The notes under the pieces were generated by a model, which was given only the letters and a program-made list of their open reading frames with translations, was not told the origin of the DNA and did no database searches. The translations under genes and the position numbers were made by a program. Positions 1,233 through 45,528 of a stretch of DNA of 64,000 nucleotides are shown here, piece by piece. Every line of letters starts with the position of its first letter. Positions within the stretch are counted from its first letter, which is position 1. Location of the stretch: assembly GCA_000182565.2 (NCBI GenBank), contig KQ257451.1; one strand, given 5' to 3'. The stretch is from Spizellomyces punctatus DAOM BR117 (taxonomy: Eukaryota).

Positions 1233-1471
1233 GATACAGTGCTTGGTTGATATTAGATCGAGTGCAGTGGACTGGCAGACTTAACACACTTGCTATGACG
1301 TAAAATGTGGACAATGCACGTGCTCAGTCCAAAAAAGTTAACCCCCTACTTTGCACACTTGCTTGCACCCATTGTGTATTCATTATAATCAACAACTTTC
1401 CATATTTCTTCCTTTAATAGAAATATTACAGGAGCGGACCGCGCGAACGCAATCCCTCCCACCACCAAAAA

Positions 1472-4400
1472 ATGTCCACTCACGCTGACTCCGAAGAGCC
1501 AGGTGACCCCGGGCCTTCGAACTGTTGTGCAATGTCGAGAACCCGAGATAGCCACCGCCTTGTTGATCACGGTAAGCTCGTAGCAGGTAAGTATGCAGGA
1601 ACAGGGAGGGGCGTGGGGACGCGCTGCTTTTATAGACGAGAGCAACTGCGCCACAACTGCGCTTGAAAAATGAAAAAACGCGTTGATTGGCTGAATTTGG
1701 CATCGGAATATTTATCACTGTTGACATGGTGATAGTATTACGACACTCACCCGCTCAAAATAGTTTAATGACGTTGTCGCAGTTTTACCTAAGGATTGGC
1801 CTAGTAATTGTCCCAGTAGATCTCTTCATTCCTTGACGCTCGTTTCTTGCGCTTGAGGGTTGAATTTGCCACCTGGGCAATATAGGGCACGGCACTCTTG
1901 GCTAGCATAGTCACCTACTTGCCCCCTGCAACCGATAGAGTATCAAGCCCGACATAGTTCAATATGACGATGCAAGAAACATTGCGAGAGCAAGTTGGCG
2001 CAGAGCTTGCCCAAGAGCGCTACGAGTGTGCAGTCTGCTATGTTATTATGTACCGTCCTGTTTGGTTTTTAGCCGCTTGCTGGTAGTTCCTATCTGGAAA
2101 TGCGTCTTGCCCTTCATAGCAAAAGATCTGCTCAAATATGGTCTTGCAAGACGTGCTGGAGAGTGCTGCATTTGCACTGCGTTAAGAAATGGGCAAAAGC
2201 ATCTTCCGCGAATTGTTCAGGTCAGAAGCAATTCCCATTTCAGCAACGTTGCCATATCTCAACTCCAAGACATACAGGTCGACAACCAGATCTAGATGTC
2301 CTGTGGCGATGTCCCAGTTGCCAGATGTCCCAGAATACGAGTGCGTTGCAATACCGATGCTTCTGTGGTACGGAGTCTAGGTGTCTGGCCTTAGGCCTGA
2401 TGTGCTCTTCAAAAGCTTTGTACTCATTACGCTTACAGAGAAGAAAGTTTCTCCTGAAGTAAACAATTATCTCATTCCGCACAGGTAAAATCTACTTCTT
2501 GAATTTTACCTGGTCGTACCTTATTTTGCTTGCTCTAGTTGCGGTGATACATGTTCACGGACTCGTCTCCATTGTCCGCATCCCTGCACATCGTAAGAGA
2601 CCTGGCGTCCATCACAACCCATTGTCATACTGATGTAGTTATATTCTGTCGTTCAGTCCTTGTCATCCAGGTGATTGTCCCTTCTTATCTATGATGTAAT
2701 AGCCAGCTACACAGCCAGTAGCTAATGTGTCTGTTGCAGGACCTTGTCCACCTTGTGATCGTCTGGGCTCGCCAGTTTCCTGTTATTGCGGAAAAGCAAA
2801 GTACGTCTCTGGAAAGGACCAGTATTTCTTTTCACAAACTTACGAGAACCTTCAGATACTCTGTGCGCTGCAATGACCTTCGTAACCAGAGCTCTTGTGG
2901 TCAACAATGCGGTGGCTCTTTGCTATGTGGGGCTCACAAGTGCCGTTTGACGTGCCATGAAGGTACGGCGGACAAATACCTCACGATGATAAAAGCAATA
3001 TAAGTTGACTCGTTTGTCAGGCCCATGTCCACCGTGCGAATCTGTTGAGATTCAAAGATGTTATTGCGGGTCCGAAATACGGGAGACGTTGTGCGGTGAA
3101 GGGATTCCATTTGTTTATGCAGATCGCGATACCGGGGTTGAGGATATCCGGCACTTCTCATGTGGTCGTCCCTGCCATTTGTACGTAGTGTTATGCTGTA
3201 TTTCATGCTTTGTTGCCAAAAGGTCCTCATCTCTGGGTATATACAGCACGTTCTCATGTGGAATTCATCGGTGTGAGCAAAATTGTCATCCATTCTCCGA
3301 ACATCCATCGCCGTGCCCGCTAGATCCCACTGTTATGTTTGCGTGTGCTTGTGGAAAGATAAAACGGAATGCACTGTCGATACAGAGCAGGACACATTGC
3401 TCAGATCCACCACTAACTTGCGAGTGAGTAGTATGTGACTAGTGTTGATAACGGCTGATGAATTCATTTCCATGGTGCCTGTCTCGTCATAAAGATCAGC
3501 ATGCCAAAAATTGCTGACATGCGGCCATGTGTGTAATCGACGTTGCCATGCGGATCCATGTGAATCAGTTTTGTGCCCCAAGACAGTGAGTTCATAGCTG
3601 CCTACGGCACGCGTACTTTGCTTGATTCATTACTATCATTTCAGACCATACTCAAATGCCGATGTGGGTCGACAACGCACTGTGTGCCTTGCTGGAAGGT
3701 TAAGCATATGACCACTGGTATGTGTCCCCATTTGATGTAGAGGGGAAGGGTGCTGTGCCAACGTTCTCGTTCTCTTTTGGAAGAGATCCGGTGCGATAAG
3801 CCATGTCACCAACGACTTTCCTGCAAACGACATGAATGCACTATGCGATGTTGTCCAGCGTCCGATGCGGCAGATTCAAATGGCGACCATGTGTGCCTAA
3901 AAGCTTGCGGTCGACCTTTGAAGTGCGGAATTCACAAATGCCAGGTATTGACGGTCTTGTTCATAACGGAACGTACCAGCATTGCTGATCTTCTGATCTT
4001 AGGCGCTCTGTCATCGAGGAAAGTGCCCACCTTGCCCAGAAGCATCGTTTAATGACGTGGCATGCCATTGTGGACGGACAGTCCTGGTGAGCATCTGTAA
4101 GATCTCTATTATCACTTTCCACGGCTATAGTAACGGGGAGCGATTGGTTCAGCGCGCACCAATACCATGTAATACAAAGCCCCCGGAATGTTCACATCCA
4201 TGCATTAGGTACATGATGGACCCGTCGCATGCTTTGTGTGCACATTGCTTATTAGTAAATCGAACATTCAATTTAGGCAGCCAGCATGTGGACATGCAGC
4301 CATTCCTCACCCTTGCCATCTTGATGACGTTCCGTGTCCTCCATGCCCTGTACGTTGGTATCATGGCACGGCATAACACATTGGGGCTGATGACGGTACC

Positions 4401-14948: not shown

Positions 14949-16815
14949 ATGGTCAAGTTTGCCACCTCCACTGCGCTGGTCGCAGCTGCCCTTGCCTCTT
15001 CTGCTCTCACTGTCCTTGCCGCACCCGCTCCTACTACCCAGAGCGTGGACATTCCTTCCTTCCAGCGTGATCCCGCTTACGCTGTCTATGGCAAGGGTAC
15101 TGCAGCTCCACCTTCCTTTGGCCCGGTTGATGACAAGACCGCGGCTTTGTCGCACATTAGCGAACAGACTGGCGTCCCTGTGGGCGAGCTCGAGGTGACA
15201 GATGACTACTCTAGTGCCAACGGCGTTAGGCACATCTACGTTAAGAGGGTCTTGAACGGATACCGGGTAAGTGCGACTTTCGAAGCGGTAGATGCCTTGT
15301 GTGATGAAAGCGCGCTGACTTTTATATTTGCAAACCCAGATTGGTAACCAAGTCGGCAACATTTCAGTCAAGGACGGCAAGATCCTTTCCTTTGGAAACT
15401 CTTTTGCGCCTGCCAACAACTTCGCCCCACCAACCATTGACGAGCCCACCGCCAAGGTGAACGCCCAGCAAGCCATCCAGACCGCTGAGAAGGCATTGGG
15501 TCTCAAGGCAAACAGCATCAAGCCCTTCAACCGCTACGTTGAAAGCTCTGACAGTAAATACGAATTCGCTTGGACCTTCCAGGTCCAGTCTGCACCTGGT
15601 GCCAAAGACCTCAAGTGGTACGAAGTTGATGTGTCCGCCAAGACCGGAAAGATCATCAGTGTCACCAACTGGGTGAAAGACGCTTCTTACACTGTCGCCG
15701 ACTTCCGCGGGGCCGACCCCACCAAACAAATCATCACCGTGAAGGACCCCGCCAACGCTGTTGCCTCACCTAAAGGCTGGCACAACGATGGGACTACGGC
15801 CTTCACCGAGACCCGTGGTAACAACGCATTTGCGTACAACTCCTCTGGCGGTTCAAAGGTTACTGCCAAGGGCGGTGCTCAGAACAACTACAACACCAAA
15901 TACGACGTGAATGCCAATGCCAACACGGCCAGCAACAAGCAAGCCGCGATCGCGAACGTATTCTACGTTGCAAACAGCATGCACGATCTTTTCTACCAAT
16001 ACGGTTTCAACGAAGCTGCTGGAAACTTCCAAGTAAGCAACAATGGAAAGGGCGGACGGGGCAATGATGCCGTATCGATCAGCGCGCAGGATCCCAACGG
16101 TACAAACAACGCCAACTTTGCCACTCCACCTGACGGCCAAACACCTCAGATGAACATGTACGTCTTCACCAGTACCAAACCCACCAGGGATGGTGATTTG
16201 GAGAACGATATTCCCATTCATGAATACACTCACGGTATCAGTAACCGCCTGACGGGTGGACCCGCCAACTCCAACTGTCTCCGTACCACTGAGGCCGGTG
16301 GTATGGGTGAAGGTTGGTCTGACACCGCTGCTCTCTTCGTTCAGCGTCGTGCTACCCACACCCGCGACACCGACCTGGTCATGGGTGATTGGGTAACCGG
16401 AAACCCACGCGGTATCAGAACTCAACCCTACTCCACCAGCCTTCAGCGCAACACTCTCAAGTACTCCACCGTCGGCAGACTTAACGAGGTTCACGCCATT
16501 GGTGAAGTCTGGGCCACCATCTGGAACGAAGTCTACTGGAACTTGGTGGACCAGTCTGGCTTCTCTGACGATATTTTCAACGCTAACCAAGAGAAGGGTA
16601 ACATTGTCGCCTTCCAGCTCTTTGTTGACTCACTTGCCCTTCAACCTTGCAACCCAACCATGATTGCCGCCCGTGATGCCATTCTCCAAGCCGATGAGAA
16701 CCGTTACGACGGTAAATACAAGTGCGCCATCTGGAAAGGATTCGCCAAGAGGGGTATGGGTGCCAACGCTACCACTTCCAAGGTTGACGACTTTACCCTT
16801 CCTGCTGGATGTTAA
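14949..16815 (+). CDS. Fungalysin (M36) secreted metallopeptidase, intron 15267-15339
   Basis: Signal peptide MVKFATSTALVAAALAS; FTP-like propeptide; ASPKGWH, FYQYGFNEAAGNFQ, NNANFATPPDG, HEYTHGISNRLTGG (HExxH), GMGEGWSD, LQPCNPT, IWKGFAKRGMG. Confidence 0.96.
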
Positions 16816-17011
16816 TAGAGATGAATTTGGGTAGATGGGATTAGAATACCCTTCCATGACGTCTATGATACATATATACCTAGTGTAGATGCCTTTGTTA
16901 TATGGTAGATACTTTTTGTTTAGCACTGCGGGTTCGGTGTGCAGCACTCTATGATAAACTGAAAATAATACGGTTTTGTTGATCACATTTGAGACATCGA
17001 GACATTTCTTG

Positions 17012-17146
17012 TTATGTGGGCAATGACAAAAGACAAAACACCAGCGTCCAATGGGTCTGGCGAGTGCCAGCCCGGATAAAGCTAACTAGCTGCTAGACCC
17101 TAATTATGCTTATGCGATATAGAACGGTTGGTCTAACCGGGTAACT
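17012..17146 (-). ncRNA. Diverged omegaRNA-like remnant homologous to the right end of the 40753-41477 element
   Basis: Reverse complement shares AGTTACCCGGTTAGA(c/a)CAACCGT..TAT.GCAT..CTAG..TAGT with 41319-41376, then GCTTTATCC, hairpin GGGCTGGC/GCCAGACCC, ATT..TGGTGT..TTTGTCATTGCC, CACATAA, in the same order as 41405-41479. Confidence 0.55.
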
Positions 17147-17376
17147 TTGTTTATGCTCGTCCAACCATCGGATCACGTGATCCACCAGCCGCTTCATGTC
17201 CCGTCATTCTCGTGTACGTGAATGTCGAATGAGAGTTCCATTTTACTCGTGATAGGGCCCAAGGAAGATCTTCCATTCAGACGCTTGAATAAGGGTGGAT
17301 TTGCCTCCTCTAAGTGCTGCTTATGCTAGACAGCATAGTGATCTACGAGAATACACGAGTTCTCTGACCGCCAGAT

Positions 17377-20300
17377 ATGGGGGACGCGGACAAAGAGCGC
17401 GAGGAAAAACTGAAATTGGCGAGGAAGAAGGTGGGTCTCTAAACAGGAACTGTGGGCGTTATGTTGGGAACTATCTTTTGCCAAGTTGATTAAACCGCTT
17501 TGCTTTGCTGCAGTTGAACAAGTTTCGGCAAAAGAAGGTAACAACTTCCGGTGACGCTGGAGATGCAAAGGTAGCTACATGGGTGGACCGTTCTCTCTAT
17601 CTGTAAAATTGAATGCTGAGAACGACTTGTAATTCAGGACTACTCGACGGAGCGTCTGATGCCTTCAAACAAGCTCAATGGCTCAACGACGTCCCTAGAA
17701 TCTGTTGAGATTGGAGGCGAAGAAAACACGCTGGGCTCTGGGCCAGTGCCAGCACAGAAAGCAAATACTGGGGTCGTTTCGGCTGGACTGCCTCCTCCAC
17801 CACCATCCTCAGCACTGCCACCGCAAGCATATACTGCTGCTCCACGGGGAAGAGTATACGATCCTGAGGTCCTGAAACCGGACATATCACAAGGTGAACT
17901 TGAAAAACCAGCGACAGAGGGAAATACCAATGATGGAGGGTCTTTTTTGGGTGGGTGGATGGGGAGAATTATTGGCCGAACGCCCTCATCGCCGTCAGCA
18001 CCATCCATACATCCAGATCACCATACGAGTGTGGAGGCTCATACCGTTGGCGTGCCAAGGAATAATGCAACAGATGGTCAAGATCAGTCACCACTATCCA
18101 TTACACCGCAATCAACCTCACCTGTCCATGCTCCTCCAAAGTCGCCTTATGCTTACACCCAATCACCTTCCGTCTCACATCCAACCCCGACTTTGCAATC
18201 TGGTGCGTATTCGACATCAGATAATTTGCACAAAATAAATGAGCTGCAAGCCGCTTTGGAAGTCGCTCGACTGGAAACGAAACAAGAGCACGACGCTCGC
18301 ATGGCGGTCGAGCAGCGAGTTACCATCTTGACAGCGCAGATTAACGGTGCTCTGGAGCGAATGGTAAAGGAGAAACAAAGTTTGGTGGAGAAGCTTGCGT
18401 CTGCCGAACAGGAAAGAGATGCGGCAATTCAGGAAACAGAGAGATTGAAGGTTGACAAAGAGGGAACTTCATCAAGCAATGCACAACTGCAAGAACGAGA
18501 GGAGGGTGTTCTTGTCTTGGAAGAAGAAATTAGGGCGAGGCTGAAGGAAGTTGAACGATGGAGCAATGAGGTTTCGGAAAGGGAAAGGGAATTTTCAAGG
18601 GAAAAGGAACGGGTGGAAAATATGCTCCGACAAGTCGAAGAGGCGAAGGCAGCGGTTGAGACCGAGCGCATAGAGCTGGAACGTTTGCGAGACTTGGGGG
18701 GCATGAAGGCGACAGAGGGTGGCGATGGGTCACCACACGACGAGATGCTGGCTGAAATCCAGCGAGCAGGGGAGGAGCTAGAAGATGAAAAGCGTGCAGT
18801 GGAGGAAATGAGGCAGCGTGCTGAGAACTTACTTGTTCAACATGAACGCTTCAAGGTTGATATGGAAAAGGAGCGTCACGCAATTCACGAGGAAAGAGCG
18901 ACGCTGATGGAGGAACAAGCCCAGTTGCAAGCGGCAAAGGTTGCAGTTGCCACCCAATATCAACAAATTGAGGAAGCTAGGCAGGCAGTGGAAGACGAGC
19001 AACAAAACCTTTATGAGGCTCGACGAAGACTAGAGGCGGATACGGCTGCCCTGGAAGCTAGAGAATCGGTTTCCGCGAACATTACTGGGCATCAAGACCA
19101 ACCGGGGAGCTTGGAGCTTGAAGCTGAGCGTGCAGCTCTTGGTGCTCGTGAGTCAGAACTGCAGAAACAATTTGATGCGCTGAATGAGAGGGCGTCAAGT
19201 ATCGACCGGAGCGCTAGGGAAGTAAGCGAAGCGCAGCGGTTGCTCGAGGCAGATAAACGATCATTGGAAGCCCAACGGACGCAACTATCAGAAAGAGAAG
19301 ATAAGTTTCGCAAAATATCCGAAGAGTTTCTGGCTCGGCAAGAGCAATCCAATATCGAAGCGGATCAAGTGGCCCGTGACAGGGTGGCTGCCGAGACGCT
19401 TCGTAGACAGGTTGAGATGGAACGAGCAAAGCTTAGTGTTGAGCGCGCGGCTGTTGAGGCGGCCGAGGCCAAAGTGGCCGCTGATCGCGCAGCTCTTGCA
19501 GACAGAGAGGGAAAATTACAACGGTGGGCTGAAGAGATCGGCCATAAGCAGAGTTCTGTGAACGAGGAGAGGCGCCGATTGGAGGACCAAAGAAACCGTA
19601 TTGAGGAATCAAGAAAGGTGGTGGAGACGGAGCGCAGAACTTTGGATGCAGATCGCGCTGCCTTTGCCGAGAGAGAGGTCAAGTATCGCGAATTAATGGA
19701 CGAACTATTGGCTAAGCAGGCCACAGTACGCGAGGAAGGAATCAGAGTAGAGCAATTGAGAATACAGTATGAGAAAGACCGTAGCCAACTGGAGCAAGAC
19801 CGTCGATTGCTTTTGGAGCGGGAAGGGCAATTGCGTCAGCGAACGCAAGAGTTACTGGCCGGACAAGATGCCGCAACAGAAGAAGCTCAGCGAGCGGCAG
19901 ACCTGAGACGGCAATGCGACATAGATAGGGCCCAGCTTGAAACCGAACGAACGGCACTTTTGGAGAGGGAAGCCAAGCACAAGCAGGCCGTCGAGGAGTT
20001 TTTGAAGCAGCGCCAGGCTGCCAATGAAGCAGCCGCCCGAACTTCAGAGAAGCAACGTCAGTTGGAAATTGATCGGGTCACACTTTCAGAGAGGGAAGCT
20101 CTGGCTAACCGAGCGCTGGAAGATCACGCTGCCAAGCAGCGAGAGTTGGATGGTGCTATTCGAACCTTCAACGAATTCAAGGCACAGCTAGATTCCGCCA
20201 TGCAGCAGCGGGAGGCTAGTTTACAGGACGAAAAGCGAGAGCTCGAGGCAGAGCGAGCGGCTATCAAACAACACGCCGCCAAGGAACGCGCAGAGATGGA

Positions 20301-24892: not shown

Positions 24893-25441
24893 TTGGCGGG
24901 TTCGGTTTATCCGAGCACAACTCTCCGTTGGGTTCGCCTGATGGAGGTTAGGACGTGTGTGTTTTCACTCTGTCCGACGCCAAAGGGTGGATATCTCCCA
25001 AGTTGCTTTGGGTACCTGCTCTGCAATGATGCGGGGTGGGTGTTGGCGGGTTCGGTTTATCCGAGCACATCTCTCCAATGGGTTCTTCTCATGGAGGTTA
25101 GGACATGTGTGTTGTCACTCTGTCCGACGCCAAAGGGTGGATATTCTCCCAAGTTGCCTCGGGTACCGTGCCCTGTATCGTGCGGAGTCCAGTTCTTGGC
25201 GGGTTCGGTTTATCCGAGCACATCTCTCCAATGGGTTCTTCTCATGGAGGTTAGGACATGTGTGTTGTCACTCTGTCCGACGCCAAAGGGTGGATATTCT
25301 CCCAAGTTGCCTCGGGTACCGTGCCCTGTATCGTGCGGAGTCCAGTTCTAAGGGCGGGTTCGGTTTATTCGAGCACATCTCTCCATTGGGTTCGCCTGAT
25401 GGAGGTTAGGACGTGTGTGAACTTTCACTCTGTCCGACGCC
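24893..25441 (+). repeat. Tandem array of about 3.6 copies of a 150-155 bp unit with conserved predicted RNA structure
   Basis: GGCGGGTTCGGTTTAT recurs at 24895, 25045, 25198 and 25353; copies 2 and 3 are near-identical; followed by a 21-nt poly(C) at 25452-25472. Confidence 0.95.
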
Positions 25442-25840
25442 AGGCTGGATTCCCCCCCCCCCCCCCCCCCCCAGAGGTGGGCTTGTTGGTTTTTCCATTT
25501 GAACTCCGTTGTATACTGCTAACGGATATCTTCATGTAGGAACTATTAACATTTCTTATCTTCATATAGGACCAAAATGCTGCGGGATATATGACCGGTC
25601 AGTGATTAAGAAGAATCGAGCTGGTAAGGTTTTGTGAGCACATTGTCTTCGTATCTCTCAGAAATTTAAGGCGTTCATACAATATAGATTCGGACACGTA
25701 CGCTTTCCTCAAACCTCCGCCGCCTGTTCTCCCCCTTTTCGGTTCCGGACGATGCTCGCCAAAGTAACATCAAGACCGAGATTCAGAAGACGTACGGTTC
25801 CTTTCAAGAAACACAAGAATCGTTTATGACTGGACAAGTC

Positions 25841-40565: not shown

Positions 40566-40650
40566 CGCTCCCGGCCAGGGTCGAACTGGCAACCTCTCGG
40601 TAGCTAGATATCTAACAGCCGAACGCGCTAACCAATTGCGCCACGGAAGC
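40566..40650 (-). tRNA. tRNA-Asn (GTT) with 11-nt intron
   Basis: Reverse complement GCTTCCGTGGCGCAATTGGTTAGCGCG-TTCGG-CT-GTT-A[gatatctagct]A-CCGAG-AGGTTGCCAGTTCGACCCTGGCCGGGAGCG. Confidence 0.93.
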
Positions 40651-40752
40651 TTGCGAATATAGGACTTGCTATGTATATTATCTATGTAATATGGAATCTA
40701 ATTCATACAAGCAAAATGATTTCCACGAGCATTGTGCAGTGGCCATCGCATA

Positions 40753-41477
40753 GTGTGTGGGCAAAAAGGATTGTCAGTCTGCAGATAGATGCAGCCACTG
40801 GATCGAATGAGATGAAATGCAAAATGCCTTCCTCGATTTAGGCAAATGAAACTATGGGTCGATGCACAAAAGATGCTCCATCATGAGAAAACGGGTCCAA
40901 TATGCGGCCATGAATGACTGCAATTACTATCCCTTGCGGCCATCTGCTTCAGTTGCCACATGCATATCATCAGTTATGACTCAATGTATCCCCTCTTTTT
41001 TCTATATAAACCCCCCCTTGTCTGCCCCCTATCTTGTTCTTTACCCTCGACTCTCAAAGCATCTGCCCAACGTTCAAGTCCATCATGAGAATGCCGCTCT
41101 GGTGCCGAGGACCTCGCCCACCCGACAACAACAACAACATAACCCCTTGCAAACGCTGCTACTACTATACTGCTACGATCGCAGGTATGCATTATCTTTG
41201 TATTTTCCTATGCGTATTCCGAGTCTAATTCCCGTTACCTTAGTATCTGAAAACATCCTCCGACTAAAGAATTTCGGAATCAAGGGCTTAGTAGGATTTC
41301 TCTCGTGGTGGTGGGCTTAGTTACCCGGTTAGAACAACCGTAATGTATTGCATGTGTCATTGGGCCTAGTGGTAGTCGGTTGGTTGTAAGGAGGGAATTA
41401 CTTGGCTTTTCCGAACCGGTTGCCGCCGGTTTATTCCCTGGTGTATTGTGTTGTGACATTTGTTATTGCCAATACAC
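40753..41477 (+). mobile_element. Non-autonomous TIR element (Fanzor1 'ghost'-like MITE) with TA target duplication
   Basis: Left CATA|GTGTGTGGGCAAAAA versus reverse complement of right end CATA|GTGTATTGGCAATAA (16/19 including flanks); TA at 40751-52 and 41478-79; no transposase or RuvC ORF inside. Confidence 0.75.
41085..41320 (+). CDS. Putative 58-aa spliced micro-protein inside the element
   Basis: TATATAAA near 41003, ATG 41085, intron 41185-41243 (GTATGC..CTAAT..TAG); spliced frame stays open to TAG 41318-20. Confidence 0.4.
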
Positions 41478-41495
41478 TATGAACATTAAAAACAA
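41405..41495 (+). ncRNA. Fanzor1 omegaRNA-like guide RNA (about 75-nt scaffold ending CACTA plus about 15-nt flank-derived guide)
   Basis: TTTTCCGAACCGGTTGCCGCCGGTTTATTCCCTGGTG...CACTA resembles the SpuFz1 scaffold as I recall it; stems GAACCGG/CCGGTTT and TGGTGTATTG/CAATACACTA. Confidence 0.75.
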
Positions 41496-43370: not shown

Positions 43371-45118
43371 AGTTAATAACAGAGTGTGTGTAATCGATGA
43401 TTAATCTTGATGCGATGGAAAAAAAAAAAAAGGGCTGTCGTGAGGTGAATCAAGACGAATGGATAAGATGGCCGATAACGGAAAAAATAAATGGCCCTCC
43501 GCCCTTCACTCGCGCGTCGGATTTTGACAGGTTGATATAGTCGTTTGTTGGGATTCTCCGTTGGGGCAGAATGGAAACAAAGAAAACAGAAAGGGGGCAG
43601 AAAGAAAACCTTACGTCTTTTTATACTCCCGTTGTTTTCATTTAAAAATACAAAACAATTTGGGGAATATCGATGGATGTCTTTTCCATATGACACCTAC
43701 TTGTGTATCTCCCTTGATTTTTAGTTGGGATTTGGGGGGGGGGAGTTTTTTGAATACAAATCACCCGATACCCTCCGCACACACACACAAAACTCTTTGC
43801 AGTCGCTTTCGGAAAAGGCTGTGGTTTTGAAAGGCGTTGTGTGTGTGTGCGGTGGTGGATGGGTGGAAAAAAACGCGTCAGTGATTCAAAATGTTTAGTT
43901 TTGTAGTTTAAAGAAAACCCATGGGGCCTACAAGTAGTTGCTATCAAAAACAAGCGGGCAATTTCGGGATGAAACTTGAAGAATGATAAAGGGTGTAAGA
44001 AGCATATTGGAATTAGGGTATTACTGATATTTTACAATATATTTGGGCAAACTTATGGATTTCATTTAGAATGAACAAAAGATGCAAAAAATGGATATGC
44101 CACCATAAAAGAGTTTGAGAGGGTTTTAGCCACCCTTTTAAAAGTTGGCTCTGGAACTCGATTTCTTCTCCCACCACCCCGTTCTGTTTGTTACAATGCA
44201 CAACGGTCATTCTCGTACCCAAAAGATCTACTTTATCGGATAACCGCAACTACAAGTACAGACATGAGATACACTCGCGTTATTCTCAAGATGGGCTTGA
44301 TTTCTGTTCAGGTAAATAAAATCGTACCTAAAAAAAAAGGGCCTAGACAGATATTGTGTGTGTGTGTGGGTCGATCGAATCAACGAACAGATCTCGGCCA
44401 TGGCTATCTCACGCACAAGACACACTCATGAAGGCGCGCGTTCAAGCCTCCTCGGCTGTGGATTTCTATCTGATTGAAATGACATGTGAAAGTAAAGAGA
44501 TGGAAATCTCCCCCCTTCATTGCAATGCGTGACAAAACACGCGCAGATTGAGATGCAAAGAGATGACTCTAATGTCACTCTTCCATGACACACACATATG
44601 CAAAAGTAAACACACACACATGTGCCATAAAAAAACCTTAAAATTCCCCCCCAGCAATTGCCCCTCCGCCATGGTAACAAAACACAACCGTTATCCCATT
44701 GTTTGTGAGTTCCGCACATGTACAAAAAGCGCAGTGGTCCCTTGAACCAGGTATTAGTTACTGATTGATTACGGTCATCCCCAGGGACTCGGTTCGGCTC
44801 CTCCCGGGAACAAGAGTTTTTTTCATTTCTGAAGTTACAGGGATATAGGATAAATCTATGGAGGTATCCGAAATGCGTACTACATTGTTAGGGTCATTGA
44901 TTTTTGTGACCCTTTTTTACGGCTGCCAAATTGTTTACAGGCGCCTCCGTGCCGCAAAGATTGTGTTGTTATTCTAACTTGTTACAAGGCCAGATAATTC
45001 TGGGAATGGAACCTGACGTTCGTCAAGGCTGTGGAGACCTCTGCTTCAGGAACAAAACCATGGGTCTTTCCTTATCAGAATATGAATGTGTAATATCCAC
45101 CTCTATGTGCTTTTGAGA

Positions 45119-45203
45119 GCTTCCGTGGCGCAATTGGTTAGCGCGTTCGGCTGTTAGATATCTAGCTACCGAGAGGTTGCCAGTTCGACCCTGGCCGGGA
45201 GCG
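45119..45203 (+). tRNA. tRNA-Asn (GTT) with 11-nt intron
   Basis: Identical to the 40566-40650 copy; T-run terminator near 45222. Confidence 0.93.
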
Positions 45204-45528
45204 TTATTGTCGCGACACCACTTTTTTTCCCATATCTGTTGTGCTGTAAAGCTCGCCAACGTACTTCGAACAATTGATGTTTCATTTGCTTCTTCTCAAT
45301 ATGCCATTGCAGACGTACGATGTGAAACAAGACGAGCATCGTATCGCTTATAATATGCGCATAATCAGGCATTGGGTAGGCCAACTTAGCAAACATCGCG
45401 CGTCGCGACCAGAAACTGCTTATCAAAGCGCGCTTCTCTCTTGTATATTTCTCCAGTTAAAGTGTTGAAAGGCGACAGACACAGCTCGCATCGAGTTTCA
45501 AAGGTAACCCCCAGAGGAATACTTTGGC

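Follow-up and report, generated by a model that had tools for sequence, protein, structure and literature searches.

A probable 5'-truncated and decayed ghost Spu-1 copy beside a fungalysin gene of Spizellomyces punctatus DAOM BR117

Introduction

The window analysed here is the whole 64,000-nt stretch of Spizellomyces punctatus DAOM BR117 DNA. A minus-strand segment of 134 nt within it, at 17013-17146 (locus A), lies between a fungalysin (M36) gene and the 5' exons of a long coiled-coil gene. A first-pass annotation made from the letters of the window described this segment as a second, diverged omegaRNA-like locus, akin to plus-strand sequence at 41319-41479, which is the part of locus B (40751-41479) homologous to locus A, and took it for either an older member of the same family or a stand-alone, possibly domesticated guide-like RNA. 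The question raised by locus A is whether it is a guide RNA gene that still works or the remains of one.

The family concerned was described in S. punctatus by Saito 2023 (Nature 620:660, PMC10432273), whose text counts 42 loci that carry a full or a partial Fanzor1 (SpuFz1) gene, 19 full-length Fz genes, and 134 'ghost Spu-1' loci in which two 30-nt inverted repeats enclose a conserved stretch of about 550 nt but no Fz ORF. According to the same text, an intact ghost element measures about 600-730 bp between its 30-nt inverted repeats, and a conserved CA upstream of the left repeat is a feature of the family (PMC10432273). The omegaRNA is made up of a 75-nt scaffold ending at the right inverted repeat and a 14-15-nt guide from the flank, and is expressed as a small RNA of 88-90 nt; in the scaffold a linker joins stem-loop 1 to stem 2, and the right inverted repeat forms the 3' strand of the latter (PMC10432273). 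The target-adjacent motif of SpuFz1 is given as 5'-CATA, and ghost scaffolds without a local Fz gene are reported to support SpuFz1 editing, with a trans-acting guide repertoire proposed (PMC10432273). Published S. punctatus scaffolds start with CTTATCC or CTTTTCC, that is, CUU(A/U)UCC in the canonical SpuFz1 omegaRNA; U5, C6 and C7 of the scaffold make protein and RNA contacts in the SpuFz1 structure, and the stem-loop-1 bases U16, G17, U18, C19, G20 and G22 contact SpuFz1 (PMC10432273). The CACTA end, which lies at the right inverted repeat, is present in five of the five tabled S. punctatus scaffolds and in three ghost scaffolds (PMC10432273), and also in locus B.

These RNAs resemble the TnpB omegaRNAs of IS200/IS605 elements in that the guide RNA sits at the right end of the element, the guide comes from the flank and the nuclease may act in trans, whereas the pseudoknot of TnpB omegaRNAs and Cas12 is absent from the SpuFz1 scaffold (PMC10432273). 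Unlike IS200/IS605 elements, Spu-1-type elements have terminal inverted repeats. We know of no transposase for Spu-1-type elements.

Homology between the two loci

The homology of locus A to locus B is far above chance. A 23-mer with one free position occurs at exactly two sites in the window, 17124-17146 on the minus strand and 41319-41341 on the plus strand, with a chance expectation of 0.00 in 100 shuffles; the 22 of 23 identical letters counted in the first-pass annotation were thus recovered, and at no third site. Local alignment of the two loci gave a score of 26.5, well above the 9.2 +/- 1.5 obtained from 1000 dinucleotide shuffles, the best of which reached 17.5 (z 11.4), and above the 15.0 of the best of 2935 control windows of real sequence. 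When the first 45 nt were left out, the remaining 3' part (the 3' 100 nt) scored 17.0 against 8.8 +/- 1.5 (z 5.4), a value reached by one shuffle in 1000. Identity by segment was 30/35 in a block at the 5' end, 25 of 43 columns in the 5' half of the scaffold and 21 of 36 columns in its 3' half, the last comparing the stem 2/right-repeat remnant of locus A with 41444-41479 of locus B.

This homology is bounded at 17146 and at about 17013. The flanks of locus A on both sides, compared with the flanks and interior of locus B, scored at chance level (177, 247 and 248 of 300 shuffles reached the score); for the sequence upstream of locus A against the interior of locus B, 247 of 300 shuffles were as good, and BLAST of this upstream sequence against locus B gave a best E of 0.26. 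Two collinear BLAST matches to the interior of locus B, 17930-17949 (E 0.26) and 17866-17904 (E 1.9), fall in the coiled-coil coding region and were set aside as chance-level. Neither a left repeat nor a CA-TAGTG was found upstream of locus A as far as 18300.

Rfam gave no match to locus A or locus B at E values up to 10, and its matches lay only beside them: bxd_6 (E 9) by locus A, and a tRNA and mir-374 by locus B. The 23-mer was found at 0 loci in metagenome scans. An 18-mer common to locus B and the ghost scaffolds occurred at 16 metagenome loci (L001-L016), which were rejected as chance; their scores of 18-22 to the 3' part of locus B are barely above that of the 18-mer itself.

Locus B as a ghost-type element

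Judged by its sequence, locus B is a complete ghost-type Spu-1 element. All matches of locus A and locus B to published scaffolds and ghost records, here and below, are by-eye alignments to printed text. Locus B opens with a CA (40749-40750) followed by a 30-nt left inverted repeat (40749-40780 together with the CA, plus strand) that begins TAGTGTGTGGGCAA..., and its two ends are complementary at 22 of 28 positions, the left end being compared with 41454-41481. The ghost-type interior (40781-41318, plus strand) contains a Spu-1 5' UTR-like region, a TATA box (41003-41010, plus strand), and a small ORF with the GT of an intron start. This ORF, MRMPLWCRGPRPPD..CYYYTAT, has its exon 1 at 41085-41184 and the intron GT at 41185 (plus strand). 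The interior is homologous by eye to ghost record 1, to a ghost record near part 69 of supplementary file 6 and to the 5' UTR of canonical ID16, and its canonical Spu-1 5' UTR-like motifs read ..CTCGATTTAGGCAAATGAA..GATGCTCCA..AACGGGTCCAATATG.. by eye.

Downstream lie a 35-nt block and a spacer (41319-41405, plus strand), with no significant fold of their own (z -0.27), and then a putative omegaRNA scaffold of 74 nt (41406-41479, plus strand) that ends in CACTA, the right inverted repeat being 41450-41479. Following the published 14-15-nt rule, the 15 nt of flanking DNA at 41480-41494 (plus strand) would be the guide. Over its first 38 nt this scaffold agrees by eye with the published ID20 scaffold at 34 positions, and the linker 18-mer GGTTTATTCCCTGGTGTA is identical to that of ghost scaffolds 1-3. 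The scaffold folds into two stems, stem 1 and a long stem 2 joined by the linker, at -27.2 kcal/mol (z -5.66), and 0 of 200 shuffles were as good. Locus B is thus like the published ghost Spu-1 elements in its architecture, its 18-nt linker stretch, its CA and inverted repeats, its TATA-bearing interior and its small MRM..CRGPRPPD ORF.

Stem 2 and the inverted repeats of locus B, GUGUAUUG...CAAUACAC, differ from the GUGUAG...CUACAC of the published ghosts and the GUGCGG...CCGCAC of canonical elements, and are still paired. All three types of stem 2 and inverted repeat (canonical, ghost and B-type) stay paired, an observation of modest value: it exemplifies how a change in either repeat or in the 5' strand of stem 2 has to be matched in the other two. 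The alternative reading of locus B as an LTR or a Tc1-type MITE, for which there is no target-site duplication beyond TA, was superseded by the Spu-1 match.

The small ORF behind the TATA box of locus B reads MRMPLWCRGPRPPDNNNNITPCKRCYYYTATIA. Its CRGPRPPD and CYYTAT cores are conserved in published ghost records, and the available portion of the paper's text mentions no ghost ORF (PMC10432273).

Text searches of the Saito 2023 supplement have limited reach, for its sequences are wrapped in 10-letter groups and this layout hides most true matches. With that limit, 0 matches were obtained for the C-terminal peptides of the flanking genes, 0 for two B-type end motifs and none for four motifs; product names (for example, metalloproteinase) likewise gave 0, the 'protein kinase' in the supplement being a different kinase. 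A 9-mer occurred at 7 places in supplementary file 6, at least one of which is a tRNA gene.

What locus A has kept and lost

On the minus strand from 17146 to 17013 the parts of locus A follow in the order block, spacer, scaffold start, stem-loop 1, linker and T-rich end. The 35-nt pre-scaffold block of ghost Spu-1 type (17112-17146, minus strand) reads AGTTACCCGGTTAGA...GCAT, in full AGTTACCCGGTTAGACCAACCGTTCTATATCGCAT, and corresponds to 41319-41353 of locus B. In two published ghost records this block stands directly 5' of the scaffold, outside the published 75-nt scaffold, and it folds no better than shuffles in locus A (z -0.57) or locus B (z -0.27). At the canonical ID16 locus, in contrast, the scaffold begins 21 nt past the Fz stop codon, and the printed sequence has no such block there (PMC10432273). 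More generally, the canonical scaffolds shown lie within about 21 nt of the Fz stop and are without the ghost block, whereas loci A and B are without an Fz ORF.

The 30-nt spacer between block and scaffold (17082-17111, minus strand) ends ..TAATTAGGGTCTAGCAGCTAGTTAG (..CTAGTTAG) and matches by eye, in both sequence and length, the spacer ..TAATTGCCTAGTAGTAGCTTAGTTAG of a ghost record near part 19 of supplementary file 6; the spacer of locus B is about 20 nt longer. This record, which agrees by eye with the block, the spacer and the scaffold start, has both the spacing of locus A and the CCAACCGTT letters, and it therefore bridges loci A and B. By these by-eye comparisons, published ghost records thus include family members that link the two sequences, as the first-pass annotation had required of its reading. 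The scaffold start CTTTATCC (17074-17081, minus strand) contains U-C-C (17074-17076), and as CTTTATCCGGGCTGG it is close to the CTTATCCGAGCTGG of canonical ID14.

Stem-loop 1 (17053-17073, minus strand) is intact. It reads GGGCUGGC-ACUC-GCCAG-A-CCC (GGGCTGGC-ACTC-GCCAG-A-CCC in DNA letters) and is present both in the single fold and in the A/B consensus fold. Its helix has eight pairs, of which, relative to locus B, three are changed on both sides and one on one side only, in agreement with the earlier description of a different but still paired hairpin. From this comparison of two sequences only, the compensated stem 1 suggests that the lineage was once under selection, and we infer that the pairing has been kept in locus A because that lineage was once active. 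The loop region reads C-A-C-U-C-G in locus A and U-U-G-U-C-G in the published scaffold; if the two are numbered alike, U18, C19 and G20 are kept, with a loop of 4 nt and G20 paired.

Beyond the hairpin, locus A has decayed. The next stretch is ATTGGACGCTGGTG, followed by a T-rich run ending TTTTGTCATTGCCCACATA. The linker (17039-17052, minus strand) is lengthened and diverged, AUUGGACGCUGGUG as against UUUAUUCCCUGGUG in locus B and the published ghosts. What is left of stem 2 and of the right inverted repeat (17013-17038, minus strand; ..TTTTGTCATTGCCCACATA) has neither a partner strand nor a CACTA end; the 3' end is TTTGTCATTGCCCACA, and the terminus is ..CCCACATAAC in place of ..CACTA. The 3' strand that survives, TTGTCATTGCCCACA, shows homology to the right inverted repeat of locus B and is closer still to the complement of the left one, so that the double likeness noted in the first-pass annotation is real. 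Folded by itself, the 72-nt scaffold of locus A has stem 1 but no predicted stem 2, and its stability (z -1.59) was matched by 13 of 200 shuffles. Of the ghost interior, locus A has the last 65 nt only, namely the block and the spacer. Fold, BLAST and alignment together thus bear out three further statements of that annotation, that the CACTA terminus is degraded, that the second stem is degraded and that the left end is missing.

In sum, locus A is like ghost Spu-1 in its pre-scaffold block, spacer, scaffold start and stem-loop 1. It is unlike it in comprising the last 134 nt only, without the left repeat and the rest of the interior, and in its unpaired stem 2, lost CACTA, 4-nt stem-1 loop and longer linker. 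We consider it likely that locus A is what remains of a ghost Spu-1 copy, truncated at its 5' end, decayed and now inert. Ghost Spu-1 elements are gene-less relatives of the transposon-like elements that carry Fanzor1 (SpuFz1), and locus A would be a relic of one of them. An intact ghost is transcribed, the last 75 nt of the element folding into stem-loop 1, linker and stem 2, and its transcript runs 14-15 nt into the flank to provide the guide (PMC10432273). Such an omegaRNA is loaded onto SpuFz1 that full-length copies elsewhere supply, and it directs the cutting of double-stranded DNA beside 5'-CATA (PMC10432273). Locus A has kept the ghost-specific pre-scaffold block, the UCC of the scaffold start and a paired stem-loop 1. 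It has lost the promoter-bearing 5' three quarters with the left inverted repeat; stem 2 no longer pairs, and the CACTA junction, which fixes the first position of the guide, is gone. What remains would be a fossil, separated by 26 nt from the poly(A) site of the fungalysin gene. The fully paired stem-loop 1 with its three compensatory pairs and the intact UCC speak against this reading, as a random fossil need not keep them.

Reads over locus A

Reads were aligned to 16500-17700 at 85% likeness. Run X21 is stranded raw RNA with 60-nt reads, of which about 6 in 100 of the run were used. The depth of 800 against 2 over the fungalysin mRNA and the poly(A) tail behind 16987 indicate that the first mate of X21 is sense and that the library is of poly(A) type and 3'-biased. 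Libraries of this type do not capture small RNAs, and an 88-90-nt non-adenylated omegaRNA from locus A would go unseen in them.

The body of locus A is nearly bare in X21, with depths of 1.9/0 over 16992-17032 and 0/0 over 17033-17073. A minus-sense peak of 487x covers 17112-17146 only, that is, the block. The reads in this peak diverge from both flanks, 360 of them before 17112 (0.98 agreement) and 529 behind 17146, and nearly all show G>T at two positions, 17122 (624 of 625) and 17131 (624 of 626), where the letter is that of B-like copies and not that of locus A. Further differences occur in subsets of the same reads: 316 have T>C at 17120, 328 have A>T at 17123 and 125 have C>T at 17125. 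Both the letters and the unlike flanks indicate that the block reads are transcripts of other, B-like copies, of which there are at least two or three. Of the 625 block reads, no more than one could be locus A's own, and no poly(A)-type RNA of its own was seen in X21.

The block is also multi-copy in DNA, as follows from the ChIP-DNA run X22 (38-nt reads), in which about 20 of 42 reads at 17122 show one of two letters belonging to other copies. In contig set X5, two contigs match the block only, with 5 and 4 differences and B-like flanks, and contig set X9 matches the 3' part of the fungalysin gene only. With 134 ghost and 42 Fz loci reported in the published text (PMC10432273), and with other copies accounting for about 20 of 42 ChIP-DNA reads and 624 of 625 RNA reads, the high-copy family that had been proposed from two copies in 64 kb is well borne out.

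Set X5, recorded as 'DNA?', behaves like cDNA: it contains a spliced GT..AG joint, and the fungalysin 3' end stands at 678x against about 5x for neighbouring exons.

Ghost-type copies give rise to abundant poly(A)-type sense transcripts through the pre-scaffold block, at 487x against 800x for the fungalysin 3' end. These block reads suggest that ghost omegaRNAs are perhaps cut out of a longer Pol II transcript. The transcripts bear on how ghost omegaRNAs are made and are of modest value in this respect.

Alternative explanations

One alternative, which we regard as unlikely, would derive locus A not from a ghost but from the 3' end of a full-length Spu-1-like element that encoded Fz and belonged to a diverged lineage, and the block from the last Fanzor codons. 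One reading frame in both loci does read ..SYPVR(P/T)TV.. and stops at the same aligned TAG, the two A/B gaps before this shared stop sum to 3 nt, and the 36-codon frame of locus A ends by eye somewhat like the SpuFz1 C-terminus (..LDGHGRPEVF..), with 11 residues from RP to the stop in each. Against this stand the occurrence of the block in ghost records and the canonical ID16 scaffold, which begins 21 nt past the stop with no block in the printed sequence. There is also no Fanzor-like domain or open frame upstream of locus A. A phmmer search of the 36-aa frame against all PDB chains, among which the cryo-EM structure of SpuFz1 is presumably deposited, returned five sequences at E values up to 10 and no Fanzor; the five were four designed repeat proteins and the unrelated bacterial yffB.

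Quite unlikely, in our view, is a working stand-alone gene for an orphan or domesticated guide RNA. A promoter of its own, or one nearby, would then drive a small RNA that joins SpuFz1 in trans and enlarges the guide repertoire of the cell by one. The three compensatory pairs that keep stem-loop 1 and the retained UCC would fit such a gene, as would the published editing with ghost scaffolds that have no Fz gene beside them and the proposed trans repertoire (PMC10432273). The ChIP-DNA signal, moreover, climbs just upstream of locus A from 17100, which places the locus at the edge of an active promoter region. Against this reading, stem 2 is absent and the fold is no better than shuffles, the linker is altered by insertions, a 4-nt ACUC loop stands in place of the 6-nt UUGUCG-type loop with its protein-contacting bases, and the CACTA that precedes the guide in every published scaffold shown and in locus B is lost. 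The ghost promoter is absent as well, and no more than one of 625 block reads can be attributed to locus A.

The first-pass interpretation stands in part. Locus A does belong to a family of omegaRNA-bearing elements, this family is high-copy, and the reading of a diverged, older-looking member is supported. The stand-alone, possibly domesticated guide-like RNA is not supported, given that the 5' part with the promoter, the CACTA junction and stem 2 are all lost and that X21 has no poly(A)-type RNA from the locus. With no promoter part, no stem 2, no scaffold/guide junction and no poly(A)-type RNA of its own, the ghost Spu-1 copy at locus A is most likely inert, and it is probably non-functional.

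Very unlikely is a variant in which loci A and B represent a third Spu-1 lineage of scaffold and inverted repeats, missed by a catalogue built on inverted-repeat homology, with locus A still made as an orphan guide and used in trans by SpuFz1 or a diverged Fanzor. The least credible reading makes loci A and B an unrelated structured small RNA (snoRNA, snRNA or similar), a common cis-regulatory element or a chance likeness; both loci are intergenic and tail-to-tail with the 3' end of a neighbouring gene, and one hairpin covaries, but Rfam is empty for both at E up to 10, the 23-mer and alignment tests exclude chance, and locus B agrees with the published Fanzor ghost family in its inverted repeats, CA, interior and scaffold. 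Readings as snRNA, snoRNA, SINE or a tRNA-like sequence had been weighed by eye and were dropped on the Fanzor family match.

The decayed ghost Spu-1 reading adds little to what is known. The family was already described in 2023 (PMC10432273), to which the window contributes one decayed copy and one complete variant copy, locus B. Neither the co-change of stem 2 nor the ghost transcripts are new in kind, and overall the result matters little.

Genomic surroundings

The fungalysin (M36) ORF ends at 16815, and its mRNA has a sharp poly(A) site at 16987 (plus strand), giving a 3' UTR of about 172 nt. In X21, 65 reads with an A-run loose end mark this site, and depth drops there from 245 to about 2. 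The site lies 26 nt from the end of locus A, the two being tail-to-tail. Locus B is flanked by an intron-bearing tRNA gene on one side and by the stop of a protein-kinase gene on the other. None of the 76 ORFs of at least 130 aa in the window has a transposase or TnpB/Fanzor domain, which is consistent with locus A being a relic able to depend only on copies elsewhere.

Several other features of the window were recorded. The coiled-coil gene has spliced 5' exons, with a GT..AG joint at 17568/17636 (17410-17700), and between 17100 and 17650 the ChIP-DNA depth increases 5- to 10-fold. The intron-bearing tRNA gene at 40566-40650 (minus strand; Rfam 52.6 bits) has a 12-nt insert after the anticodon loop and was missed by ARAGORN; an inverted twin, 99% alike over 90 nt, lies 4.5 kb away at 45118-45207 (plus strand). 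A U1 spliceosomal snRNA gene is found at 1431-1594 (minus strand; 85.1 bits). At 24893-25442, a tandem array of 3-4 copies of units of about 150-153 nt, with 71-100% identity, overlaps two ORFs of more than 150 aa.
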